Part shown: positions 9,246-11,112 of the stretch, one piece after another
Position numbering within the stretch: position 1 is the stretch's first letter
Layout: every line of letters begins with the position of its first letter
Assembly (NCBI GenBank): GCA_031316235.1
Contig: JALDRA010000001.1
Span: 3,840,001 to 3,872,000, forward strand
DNA from: Candidatus Scalindua sp.
GTDB taxonomy: Bacteria > Planctomycetota > Brocadiia > Brocadiales > Scalinduaceae
DNA length: 32,000 nucleotides
Direction: 5' to 3'
The notes under the pieces: generated by a model
What the model was told of the DNA's origin: nothing
What the model saw: only the letters and a program-made list of their open reading frames with translations
Database searches by the model: none
Translations under genes and position numbers: made by a program

Positions 9246-10187
9246 TTAGCCCTGTTCTGGCTTTCTGTTAGTGGCTTCTTCAAGCCGTTTCATAAGAATT
9301 GATTTGAGTTCAGTAATATTTTTGTACTCAGGGCAATTGTAAGCGGCTAAATCAAAATGAATTGATGTTCCTGCTTTACGATAGAGAATGACTCTCCTGC
9401 CGAGAGAGTGGGCGTAGCCGATTTCGTAATAGACACTAGGCCGCTCATTCGTTAAATCGCCAATCAAAAACTCACTAGTTCGTATTTCCTCAATTATTCT
9501 TTTGGTTATAACGTCTTCGTGCTCGATCTCATCCGCCCGAACAGCCGTGACGCCAAACCTGGAAAAGCATTCCTTGTACGCACCACAAATATCTTCATTA
9601 TCAGGATCTGAATTATCGATTGGCATCATAATGAAGGCAGTATTGGGGCGATATGACTGCGATAAATTAGGATTCTTCGAAGGCAACCCCGTTGGGATAT
9701 TCGCGGGAGTGATCTTAAGTAACTGGGTAATTCCTTCGAATTGTTCGAGACATTCTTCAAATGCTTTGTGAGCATCAGCAGGGGAGCTACATTCATCCTC
9801 CGACTGCCTGGGTGGATTTACCCCCAAGACAATATGCTCATCATAGAGCACCTCAATATCCCAAGACCTGTACTCGCGCAGTTTGAGGGCAGCCCTCATT
9901 CTTTTCACGCAACGCCCCACATCCTTTTCGTCGGATTCATTGAGAACTGGGGACGCTTTGAGTGTCGGTATGATTAGGGCAACAACGTTCAGTAAGGTTT
10001 CTTGGGCTTTTTGAGACAGTTGGCGACTTTCCTGCGTTAATTTATCCCAGTATGCGTTGCGACCCTCCTGACGATTCGTCCGACACGGACTTGAATCCTC
10101 ATCGCATTCTGTACACGCACCGTCAAAGAACACGCGTGCTTCTTCTGTAAGCAGGGATATTCCCTTAGAAAGTTCTTTTATATCCAT
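9246..10187 (-). CDS. Two-domain protein: unknown helical N-terminal region plus nucleoside 2-deoxyribosyltransferase-like / TIR-related Rossmannoid C-terminal domain
   Basis: The 313-aa ORF begins 34 nt after the upstream gene. Residues ~183-305 read AFIMMPI..(N)..[43 protein letters not shown]. This follows the D..(S/T)..E.G.A...G(K/R) core of NDT-like domains, with the conserved Glu at E255 (codon 9423-9425). Confidence 0.55.
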   Translation of the reverse strand: [313 protein letters not shown]

Positions 10188-10221
10188 AGAGCAAAAACTG
10201 CTTATTATGCGTCAGCTTAAT

Positions 10222-11112
10222 TTAATTGTTAGATATATATTCAACATCCAAAATAGGATCTGCAAACCAATTTTGTGTAGTTTCTAATGGCAAATCATTT
10301 TTATTTAGACCTATTAATTTTTTTACGGCTCGCATAACTGCGATTCTTACAATTTCCCGATTTCCTAGAATTTCTCTAACATTTTTTGATGATATTGAAA
10401 AAAAACCATGGAATATTGAATTTCTAATTTCCCAAATAGCTTTGAAATCATCTTCTGAATATCCGGCTATATCAGTCAAAACATACTTAACCTTCTGTGC
10501 TGCGCCTGCCTTAAACTCTTTCTCATGACCACATTTCTCGCATTTTTGAATTCTTTTAATGTCTGATTCATACAAAGTAGAAATCATATCTAATGCTGAA
10601 GTTAGAAAAATAAAACTATTTACCAAATCTTTCTCTTTTATTCCATATGTAAAAAATGCAAGAACCCGTGATAGTTTAGAGTTTATAGATGTCTGGAACA
10701 AATAAGTTTGAGTCAATGGAACTGGTGGTACCAAGGTTGCAGTTTGCGATTCATGCATGATACTTCTAAAACGGCCACCTTCTGAATATTCATGTTTTAG
10801 CTCTATAGGTTTGGTTTTTTTTATTTCATTTCCCGTGAGAAAAGTTAAGAGGTTCACATAATAGTCAAAAATATCTCGCGCTAAGTCTGCAACTATAAAA
10901 GCTTCAGGTTTTTCTTCGTCTTTCAATTCAACTGAGAAATCAATTTTGAGATTAAAAACCCCAGTTTGTCTATTTTTTTCATCAAACTCAGGAAATACTT
11001 GGAATTTACGAACTAATGGATGAGGTGGTTCACTAGACTTCAAGTCCTCTGCTTTAGTCAAAAAGAAATTGCCTGAGATATACGCATTAATATTCCATAT
11101 TTGTTCGCTCAT
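10222..11112 (-). CDS. Uncharacterised protein with C-terminal HEPN-like (Rx4H) domain, ApeA/MAE_28990-like architecture
   Basis: 296-aa ORF with AGGGA 6 nt upstream of the ATG. WEIRNSIFHG gives R230-x4-H235 (10408-10425), preceded by a helical region (LAFFTYGIKEKDLVNSFIFLTSALDMIS). The gene is very AT-rich. Confidence 0.5.
   Translation of the reverse strand: MSEQIWNINAYISGNFFLTKAEDLKSSEPPHPLVRKFQVFPEFDEKNRQTGVFNLKIDFSVELKDEEKPEAFIVADLARDIFDYYVNLLTFLTGNEIKKTKPIELKHEYSEGGRFRSIMHESQTATLVPPVPLTQTYLFQTSINSKLSRVLAFFTYGIKEKDLVNSFIFLTSALDMISTLYESDIKRIQKCEKCGHEKEFKAGAAQKVKYVLTDIAGYSEDDFKAIWEIRNSIFHGFFSISSKNVREILGNREIVRIAVMRAVKKLIGLNKNDLPLETTQNWFADPILDVEYISNN

Follow-up and report, generated by a model that had tools for sequence, protein, structure and literature searches.

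Two neighboring open reading frames (ORFs), termed gene 1 and gene 2, lie in a 32,000-nt stretch of the Candidatus Scalindua sp. genome (contig JALDRA010000001.1, positions 3,840,001 to 3,872,000; this whole stretch is referred to as the window). Gene 1 encodes 296 aa and gene 2 encodes 313 aa. As described in an earlier reading of the sequence (the original prediction), they are co-oriented with a gap of 34 nt, and both are on the minus strand. NCBI entries from a 4.15-Mb contig match both amino acid sequences at 100% identity. The two genes had been proposed to form an undescribed two-gene defense system, i.e. a HEPN-like RNase paired with an enzyme related to nucleoside 2-deoxyribosyltransferases (NDT). 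The domain assignments are mostly correct. The systems-level claim does not hold on present evidence, and most likely two single-gene modules, independent of each other, came to be neighbors by accident. Both are probably conflict or defense genes, and gene 2 is best read, by analogy with Swarozyc, the retron NDT effectors and ThsI of Thoeris, as a single-protein N-glycosidase defense effector.

Absence of co-occurrence of gene 1 and gene 2

A conserved cassette of gene 1 and gene 2 is rejected by tblastn, by hidden Markov model (HMM) searches and by look-ups of genomic context. No gene 1 relative is present in 88 gene 2 loci (~83 of them independent, in ~12 phyla; tblastn and HMM), and the gene 2 HMM finds no gene 2 relative in seven independent gene 1 loci (L001, L002, L003, L096, L097, L100 and L101). 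Other than the window, 0 of the 101 fetched loci carry the pair, which thus fails the test of co-occurrence that the original prediction itself had set. Among gene 2 relatives on long contigs, the closest (84% identity) is alone after truB-rpsO-pnp-EF-G, and at L100 and L101 distant gene 1 relatives are monocistronic with opposite-strand genes on their flanks.

The base composition of the two genes is also very different. Gene 1 has a GC content of 32.2% (22.9% at third codon positions, GC3) and gene 2 one of 45.2% (GC3 44.3%), i.e. they are 13 GC points apart, with a window average of 41.4%. The foreign composition attributed to the pair is thus seen in gene 1, but is not clear for gene 2. 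In other hosts, too, each family has a GC level of its own and is usually richer in AT than its flanks: this is found for gene 1 in six of seven loci, and gene 2 is more than 5 points lower than its flanks in 42 of 80 loci. The difference in GC content, together with the lack of co-occurrence, therefore gives the appearance of two separately acquired genes. The explanation that we favor, with some reservation, is that the locus consists of two unrelated, independently mobile single-gene modules that stand side by side in a ~3.3-kb islet of acquired and decaying genes within housekeeping DNA.

The gene 2 family

The family of gene 2 is large, and its members usually stand alone. A database of 5.8 billion proteins contains more than 765 clusters at 90% identity with conservation over the full length, and a scan of 185,579 species genomes shows homologs in at least 80 loci. 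About a dozen phyla are represented, among them Nitrospirota, Chlorobiota, Gamma- and Betaproteobacteria, Desulfobacterota, Chloroflexota, Latescibacterota, Acidobacteriota, Planctomycetota, Verrucomicrobiota and Bacillota, together with Leptospira and one Bathyarchaeota metagenome-assembled genome. Homologs in different phyla display an identity of 40%-84%. Gene 2 is found on one of 2.9 million viral contigs, and plasmids give domain-level matches only, none of them full-length; phage or plasmid carriage of gene 2 is rejected on this distribution.

The NCBI Prokaryotic Genome Annotation Pipeline (PGAP) names the gene 2 product "nucleoside 2-deoxyribosyltransferase", and the NDT-like C-terminal domain that had been proposed is borne out. 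Against the Pfam family PF05014 (Nuc_deoxyrib_tr) gene 2 scores 23.2 bits (E-value = 8e-5), which is under the 28.8-bit cut-off; all 37 family members analyzed match it (best E-value = 6.1e-8) and several homologs carry a precomputed PF05014 match. The AlphaFold 2 (AF2) model (pLDDT 80) displays an N-terminal alpha/beta domain, a linker and a C-terminal Rossmann-like domain. With Foldseek, the top 49 PDB matches are all NDT or DNPH1/Rcl (E-values from 2e-4; target-normalized TM score 0.46-0.73).

A catalytic role had been assigned to the Glu at position 255. In a profile alignment E255 falls on the Glu of the DNPH1 YELG loop and of the Leishmania NDT FELG loop, which is the catalytic Glu of these enzymes, and it is thus the likely nucleophile. 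The motif quoted for this loop is verified by translation, and its conservation goes beyond chance: E255 is invariant in 37 gene 2 homologs, as are E222, H223, D244, R249, P250, Y253, Y254, H277, F278 and D279. Because the Pfam, Foldseek and profile-alignment results agree, both the NDT-like call and the E255 assignment are supported. Compared with DNPH1, gene 2 appears to have no Gly-rich loop for phosphate binding after strand 1.

No relative of the N-terminal domain is detected, and the domain occurs only together with the NDT domain. Its four-strand beta-meander (aa positions 104-133) carries the conserved sequence HDEG.VLGV.PPGQSED.

Among defense models, the PADLOC "Effector/TIR" model (PDLC00733, a TIR-type model of CBASS/Pycsar) matches all 37 members (best E-value = 8.6e-13), with gene 2 covering model positions 289-360 of 388 only, i.e. 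the enzymatic domain. PADLOC ThsB models weakly match 19 of the 37 (E-values of 2.6e-4 or worse). There is no full-length match to gene 2 in PADLOC v2 or in curated Pfam/NCBIfam models. Weak T5orf172 matches in five gene 2 relatives were judged spurious, being probably to the YYEIG loop.

A separate observation concerns phage proteins. Residues 184-302 of gene 2 (about 9282-9638, minus strand) match four PHROG families of unknown function, e.g. phrog_3634 (2e-18) and phrog_16139 (8e-13). Phage genomes therefore also carry related N-glycosidase domains, possibly as genes of nucleotide metabolism or of counter-defense.

Neighborhoods of gene 2 homologs

The 131 immediate neighbors of ~70 non-redundant gene 2 loci were surveyed, and the 25 most frequent neighbor families were listed. 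The Type I restriction-modification (R-M) subunit HsdS (Methylase_S) accounts for 4 of the 131 and N6_Mtase/HsdM for 3; TIR_2, ThsB_TIR, AbiEii-like AAA_21 and the integrase core (rve_3) are found twice each. Much of the remainder consists of singleton housekeeping genes. No cyclase is among the 25 families listed. The proposed enrichment of neighborhoods in defense genes is thus seen for gene 2 (Type I R-M, TIR, AbiEii-like ATPases and AbiJ-like proteins), but not, in the few contexts available, for the relatives of gene 1.

In four loci (L026, L027, L036 and L038) hsdS directly follows the gene 2 homolog, with gaps of -14, -11, 3 and 52 nt, respectively, and in L026 and L029 hsdM precedes it. 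The four copies followed by hsdS (homolog at ~6001-6900 in the locus) are from Latescibacterota and Chloroflexota/Dehalococcoidia, and their frames overlap or abut. The position between hsdM and hsdS, occupied by gene 2 homologs in at least four genomes, is the classic site of R-M-linked abortive-infection genes (PMC3710099). Only ~5 of 75 gene 2 loci are embedded in this way. Four other loci (L085, L087, L088 and L092, around 5800-7200) have frameshifted gene 2 copies of two to three consecutive ORFs each; judging from these copies, the gene is dispensable and decaying in some lineages.

Clustering of the flanking ORFs was also used in the search for a conserved partner of any kind. It yields clade-specific clusters, and the sole multi-lineage cluster is hsdS; a conserved partner is thus rejected. 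This setting of the gene 2 homologs supports a role in defense or conflict as a self-contained module.

The substrates, triggers, oligomerization and anti-phage function given here for gene 2, and below for gene 1, are what we infer from these features. The family-specific N-terminal domain of gene 2 would act in sensing, autoinhibition or oligomerization and would keep the C-terminal N-glycosidase inactive. A phage cue would activate the enzyme, with E255 as nucleophile. Cleavage of NAD+ or (deoxy)nucleotides at the N-glycosidic bond would then deplete an essential metabolite and abort the infection.

Comparison of gene 2 with known systems

Swarozyc is a single-protein defense in which a DUF4062 TIR-like domain acts as a portal-activated NADase (bioRxiv 10.64898/2026.05.01.722283). 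Like Swarozyc, gene 2 is a single protein that combines an N-glycosidase domain of the NDT/TIR superfamily, with its catalytic Glu, and a family-specific auxiliary domain; both are patchy in distribution, horizontally spread and found beside various defense genes. The order of the domains differs, however. DUF4062 is N-terminal in Swarozyc and its auxiliary domain is C-terminal, whereas the enzyme domain of gene 2 is C-terminal, and the fold of gene 2 is that of NDT and DNPH1, not that of a canonical TIR. No DUF4062 match is found in gene 2 (E ≤ 1) or in 37 relatives (E ≤ 0.1), and an assignment to Swarozyc/DUF4062 is rejected.

The effectors of type II-A retrons (Ec86/Eco1, Sen2) are similar to gene 2 in size (~310-320 aa) and in having two domains, one of them a toxic NDT-like domain that has conserved Glu residues and depletes nucleotides or adenine derivatives (10.1101/2023.08.16.553469; PMC7736814). 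The Ec86 effector depletes adenine derivatives (10.1101/2023.08.16.553469). In these proteins the NDT-like lobe is N-terminal and the C-terminal part is a winged helix-turn-helix (HTH), the reverse of gene 2, and an adjacent reverse transcriptase and msr/msd RNA are needed. Gene 2 is rejected as a retron effector: besides the opposite domain order, the window has no Rfam match and gene 2 is flanked by gene 1 and an MliC-like gene. In addition, no reverse-transcriptase family is among the 25 neighbor families listed for gene 2 homologs, and a search of PDB sequences with the gene 2 profile yields no retron effector.

ThsI of Thoeris type VIII consists of a tetratricopeptide repeat (TPR) sensor and a CMP-hydrolase domain and has been proposed to manipulate nucleotide pools, with reference to CMP N-glycosidase and DNPH1 (10.64898/2025.12.03.692087). 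ThsI is thus, as proposed here for gene 2, a defense effector with a nucleotide-hydrolase domain. It works with an adjacent TIR protein (ThsB) that makes cyclic ADP-ribose, whereas no TPR is detected in the gene 2 family, TIR_2 or ThsB_TIR is found on only 2 of the 131 immediate neighbors, and none is in the window. Gene 2 is therefore not taken to be a Thoeris component.

The best fold matches to gene 2 are DNPH1/Rcl and NDT (PF05014), with a target-normalized TM score of up to 0.73, and its catalytic loop aligns with SLGVGYELGRA. These are metabolic enzymes of ~130-160 aa without an extra domain, whereas gene 2 also has an N-terminal domain of 160 aa that is conserved. A likeness in location is found with PrrC, which along with various HEPN families is an R-M-embedded abortive-infection gene (PMC3710099). 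Some gene 2 homologs likewise have hsdM and hsdS on their two sides, in frames that overlap or abut, but in PrrC an ABC-ATPase is fused to a HEPN nuclease and gene 2 is an NDT-like enzyme. With no DUF4062, a domain order opposite to that of retron effectors, no reverse transcriptase or non-coding RNA and no obligate TIR partner, gene 2 therefore appears to be a new architecture within a known class.

The gene 1 family

Gene 1 has few relatives. A word-indexed search yields only nine proteins, which are close homologs, and an exhaustive profile search yields 94 representative clusters, mostly full-length at ~300 aa. Retrieval of gene 1 loci yields one truncated locus from metagenome collections and none from viral collections. 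In an alignment of 51 sequences with identity down to ~18%, the only invariant positions are C191, C194, R230 and H235. The latter two are the ends of the RNSIFH motif quoted in the original prediction, which is verified by translation and whose invariance is beyond chance. The HEPN signature is a conserved Rx4-6H in which a polar residue follows the Arg (PMC3710099), and the gene 1 sequence R230-N-S-I-F-H235 is of this form. HEPN proteins have an up-down core of four helices, with the motif on the third, and a composite active site made by the dimer; their RNase activity is metal-independent.

The AF2 model of gene 1 (pLDDT 93, pTM 0.83) shows a beta-rich N-terminal domain, for which no match is found in Pfam, PADLOC, PHROG or PDB, and a helical C-terminal domain. 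R230 is on the helix at positions 220-234, which precedes the last long helix (242-267), and the order of helices in the model fits a split HEPN domain; ApeA serves as the example of a HEPN domain split by an insertion (10.64898/2026.01.26.701840). The insert in gene 1 is a beta-hairpin with the invariant C191-x2-C194. With only two Cys ligands, the modeled hairpin may form an inter-subunit metal site.

Profile matches to gene 1 are weak and converge on HEPN families. The best is to HepT-like (E-value = 0.017; 15.2 bits, with a cut-off of 23.5), and the weak matches of gene 1 itself map to residues 215-283, over the Rx4H motif. Among the 51 members, seven match HepT-like (best 3.5e-5), six HEPN_Apea (best 5.2e-4), two RiboL-PSP and one AbiU2. 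PADLOC Csx1 and CARF_HEPN models match the family at E-values of about 0.002-0.03. A sequence-profile search of PDB with gene 1 gives nothing. The HEPN-like character proposed for gene 1 is thus sustained by the invariant Rx4H and the convergence of weak matches, but not by a match at a curated threshold or by a HEPN structure found with Foldseek. Gene 1 is a member of a rare, stand-alone family and a putative HEPN-type RNase; its HEPN-like assignment is probable but not proven. As such a protein it would act as a dimer, with the CxxC hairpin as a possible metal site between subunits, and the novel N-terminal domain would gate the RNase activity.

ApeA, the single-protein HEPN defense that is best known, is an anticodon nuclease of ~580 aa, mostly helical, with three domains, that forms decamers or dodecamers; some homologs bind Zn2+ at the dimer interface (10.64898/2026.01.26.701840). 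Gene 1 is similar in being stand-alone, with a non-HEPN N-terminal part and a putative, diverged HEPN domain that bears an insertion (PMC3710099). Among gene 1 relatives, 6 of 51 weakly match HEPN_Apea and one matches ApeA_NTD1, none at threshold. Gene 1 differs in its length of 296 aa and its beta-rich N-terminal domain. It is not considered an ApeA because of the size and predominantly helical structure of the latter (10.64898/2026.01.26.701840), and no ApeA model is among the listed PADLOC matches.

Two side observations were made on this family. Four of the 51 relatives have weak matches to MauJ (PF17419, methylamine utilization protein J; best E-value = 0.0038). From the sequence matches, a distant tie between MauJ and the Rx4H/CxxC family is possible; a literature search on such a link found nothing relevant. 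The second concerns a gene 1 homolog with 74% identity (L002:2025-3188, plus strand), which is alone between zipA and ligA. The genome is GC-rich; the gene has a GC content of 47% and its flanks 61%, so that this is a clean case of one gene inserted into a conserved pair. Its annotated product of 387 aa probably has a mis-called N-terminal extension.

HEPN-motif proteins beside gene 2 homologs

While a bona fide HEPN control protein was being sought, another type of neighbor came up. In ~7 of 75 independent gene 2 loci, the homolog adjoins a co-oriented, non-homologous protein that has a C-terminal R[ND]xxxH; the gap is 29-201 nt. Three are upstream: a 360-aa protein in L019 (AbiJ_NTD4, 6e-8; Hypoth_Ymh, 0.12), a 167-aa protein in L042 (HEPN_RiboL-PSP, 0.12, at residues 5-60, outside the motif) and a 238-aa protein in L081 with no HEPN family. 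Downstream are proteins of 230 aa in L012 (HEPN_Swt1, 0.13), 430 aa in L024 (no HEPN family), 554 aa in L066 (SIR2_2, 7e-26; HepT-like, 0.063) and 300 aa in L075 (DUF4145, 0.016).

The strict motif is found in 5 of 79 adjacent ORFs and in 6 of 587 other ORFs of the same loci (Fisher P = 0.005), the motif having been picked after the data were seen. The looser, pre-defined motif R[NDH]x3H shows no significant enrichment (9 of 79 adjacent and 49 of 587 other ORFs). Comparison of the gene 1 profile with these neighbors by hhalign gives probabilities of <5%, about equal to the negative control and hence uninformative. We read the adjacency mainly as co-residence of two gene classes that both favor defense islets.

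Two of these proteins have features of their own. The L066 protein (L066:7045-8709, plus strand), 99 nt downstream of the gene 2 homolog, joins SIR2_2 to a segment with weak NDT/TIR-like character (residues 321-397; E-value = 0.05 with the HMM of the gene 2 C-terminal domain) and a C-terminal LRNRIAH with the weak HepT-like match; it may be a triple-effector fusion. The L012 protein (L012:7011-7703, plus strand) is from Alloalcanivorax xenomutans and is 71 nt downstream of the gene 2 homolog. It belongs to a family of 17 proteins of ~230 aa with the invariant motifs PxYQRQAM and RNxWxH..G, which is regarded as an uncharacterized HEPN-like family in its own right. Its Shewanella baltica relative (L102) has no gene 2 neighbor; next to it are genes for a trypsin-like protease and for a VRR-NUC nuclease. 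The hhalign probability between the gene 1 profile and this family is 0.4%.

Alternative explanations

Several points weigh against two independent defense modules. The 34-nt gap, the co-orientation and the absence of a terminator between the genes mean that gene 1 and gene 2 may be co-transcribed in Scalindua. The HEPN assignment of gene 1 never reaches a curated profile threshold, and Foldseek finds neither a significant neighbor nor a HEPN structure for its model (best E-value 0.16 in PDB and 0.02 in BFVD). Gene 1 relatives have no defense-gene neighbors in the few contexts available, no PADLOC v2 defense model matches either gene over its full length, and the R[ND]xxxH proteins at ~7 of 75 gene 2 loci, one of them AbiJ-like and one a SIR2 fusion, hint at a link between NDT and HEPN that recurs, but are suggestive only.

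These last proteins are the basis of an alternative that we regard as unlikely, namely a modular two-gene system in which gene 2 is the conserved core and the effectors are interchangeable, most often HEPN-type RNases, here gene 1. Gene 2 might, for example, make or destroy a nucleotide-derived signal, and the HEPN partner might sense it with its N-terminal domain, much as happens in Thoeris or in type III CRISPR with Csm6. The operon-like spacing of the window pair fits this, as do the seven R[ND]xxxH neighbors (five with weak HEPN-family matches), the enrichment of the strict motif, the invariant RNxWxH of the L012 partner family, other tightly spaced effector-like neighbors (HNH in L050, SIR2 in L066) and the weak ThsB matches in 19 of 37 homologs. 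However, ~90% of gene 2 loci have no such neighbor, and many copies are clearly monocistronic or in R-M operons. The strict motif is post hoc, its pre-defined form is not significant, and the weak Pfam HEPN matches are driven by the motif itself and hence are not independent evidence. The partners vary in family, size, N-terminal domain and side, which argues against a common ligand sensor; the HEPN-like families of gene 1 and of the L012 partner are unrelated by hhalign, and both gene 1 relatives (seven loci) and the relative of the L012 partner (L102) are found without gene 2. HEPN genes are in any case common in defense islands. The pairing idea thus fails for a conserved pair and survives in the weak form that ~9% of gene 2 loci adjoin an unrelated protein with a HEPN-type motif. 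It is distinctly improbable that an NDT-like core, not a canonical TIR, makes or consumes a nucleotide-derived signal for interchangeable adjacent effectors (HEPN RNases, SIR2-HEPN fusions, HNH nucleases) in an undescribed system, and, jointly with this, that the Scalindua pair is one instance of it, with the beta-rich domain of gene 1 as the signal receptor.

A toxin-antitoxin (TA)-like pair, in which gene 1 would be a HEPN RNase toxin and gene 2 would neutralize it enzymatically or by binding, cf. the HEPN-MNT pairs, is highly improbable. The tight spacing, the co-orientation and the setting among other TA genes would fit, and HEPN toxins usually require a cognate neutralizer. Gene 1, though, is in seven independent loci without a gene 2 relative or any conserved neighbor, so that the family tolerates being alone; gene 2 relatives are alone in more than 80 loci, and the composition of the two genes differs. 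The conserved co-occurrence of partners that marks a Type II TA pair is not seen in ~83 gene 2 and seven gene 1 independent loci. To our knowledge, no NDT-type antitoxin has been described.

It is also quite improbable that neither gene has a role in conflict. Gene 2 would then be an N-glycosidase of nucleotide salvage or of modified nucleotides that carries a regulatory domain, and gene 1 would be a metal-binding protein, non-catalytic or otherwise unrelated, in which Rx4H only mimics HEPN. The PGAP label of gene 2, the metabolic enzymes among its best structural matches, the housekeeping flanks of some gene 2 loci and the lack of a significant HEPN profile or structural match for gene 1 are consistent with this. 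Gene 2, on the other hand, displays the traits of a mobile defense gene rather than those of a salvage enzyme: a patchy distribution over a dozen phyla with 50%-84% identity between them, an AT-rich composition relative to its flanks, pseudogenes and insertion inside Type I R-M operons. In gene 1 the Arg and His are conserved without exception and a polar residue follows the Arg, which is the HEPN signature (PMC3710099).

The locus and its flanks

The features of the locus are given in Table 1. The 34-nt spacer has no terminator-like hairpin, which makes co-transcription of gene 1 and gene 2 possible in Scalindua, and it has no clear Shine-Dalgarno sequence; one promoter-like match, at chance level, is at 10232-10204 around the spacer.

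Table 1. Features at the gene 1/gene 2 locus (positions in the window; aa positions refer to the respective protein).
Feature	Position	Strand	Description
Decayed Gp49(HigB)-like toxin and frameshifted HTH antitoxin	8258-8787	minus	ORF list and profile match
MliC-like lipoprotein gene (lysozyme inhibitor-like)	8760-9200	minus	45 nt downstream of gene 2, same strand; profile match
Gene 2	9246-10187	minus	313-aa ORF
Gene 2, C-terminal Rossmann-like NDT/DNPH1-like domain, aa 180-306	9270-9650	minus	Pfam PF05014, Foldseek, PADLOC
Gene 2, E255 loop	9408-9446	minus	verified by translation
Gene 2, E255 codon, invariant Glu	9423-9425	minus	aligns with catalytic nucleophile of DNPH1 and NDT
Gene 2, N-terminal alpha/beta domain, aa 1-160	9708-10187	minus	AF2: helices 3-27, 52-78, 84-101, 136-159; four-strand beta-meander 104-133
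Gene 1/gene 2 spacer	10188-10221	minus	34 nt
Gene 1	10222-11112	minus	296-aa ORF
Gene 1, C-terminal helical domain, aa 136-270, HEPN-like topology	10303-10707	minus	AF2: helices 145-159, 163-178, insert, 220-234, 242-267
Gene 1, RNSIFH, invariant R230-x4-H235, putative catalytic dyad	10408-10425	minus	alignment and translation
Gene 1, beta-hairpin insert KRIQKCEKCGHEKEFK, invariant C191-x2-C194	10510-10557	minus	alignment, AF2 and translation
Gene 1, N-terminal beta-rich domain, aa 1-135	10708-11112	minus	AF2: strands 3-13, 34-43, 49-62, 104-108, 114-120; helix 71-93
hicA stub, 24-aa HicA N-terminus (MKRKDLIRHLEKNECEFLCESFFA, then stop)	11161-11235	minus	overlaps hicB stop; ends 48 nt upstream of gene 1
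HicB/UPF0150-like antitoxin gene, orphaned	11232-11507	minus	profile match

The flanking TA modules are decayed, as had been reported. On one side the remainder of hicA beyond the 24-aa stub is gone, which suggests that the HicA toxin was destroyed, and the HicB antitoxin orphaned, by the event that introduced gene 1 or by a deletion connected with it. On the other side the Gp49/HigB-like toxin is N-terminally truncated (profile positions 29-90 of 90 only) and the HTH antitoxin is broken by a frameshift into ORFs at 8361-8546 and 8258-8407. The TA debris of the proposed defense-island context is thus real, but the wider setting is housekeeping. Beyond the ~3.3-kb islet are a PEP-CTERM protein, an operon of HMG-CoA reductase (HMGR)-like, 3-hydroxyacyl-CoA dehydrogenase (HADH) and thiolase genes, a sulfatase-like membrane protein and leucyl-tRNA synthetase, and no tRNA or Rfam family is found in the window. 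The locus is a small insertion zone and not a large defense island.

The islet is a patchwork in GC content (about 35%, 52%, 45%, 32% and 36%). The MliC-like gene, with a GC content of 51.7% (GC3 53%), is unusually high relative to the window average and is probably unrelated to gene 1 and gene 2. Next to the islet, a 454-aa protein (11545-12909, minus strand) has a borderline HMGR match at residues 157-439 only and a long Cys-containing N-terminal extension. It adjoins a HADH-like protein (12974-14098, minus strand) with a zinc-ribbon-like CxxC...CxxC at its N-terminus, and a thiolase gene follows (14082-15305). This acyl-CoA operon is unusual-looking for an anammox genome.

Significance

The negative result on pairing matters in itself: tight spacing inside TA debris is insufficient to define a system. 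Gene 1 is at present of lesser biological weight, since it is rare and the support from context for a defense role is weak or absent. It is a compact Rx4H protein with a confident predicted structure that has no neighbor in PDB or BFVD.

If the explanation by two independent modules is true, the main value of the locus would be in the gene 2 family, which is large, strongly conserved and widely transferred, and includes an archaeon. Gene 2 would then bring a further architecture into an expanding group of immune effectors, those that kill or starve the cell by cleaving N-glycosidic bonds of NAD+ or nucleotides. DNPH1 prefers 5-hydroxymethyl-dUMP. The closest fold relatives of gene 2 act on deoxynucleotides, and this leads to the idea of a defense enzyme whose target would be nucleotide pools instead of NAD+. 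As a single-gene defense, this family is a good candidate.

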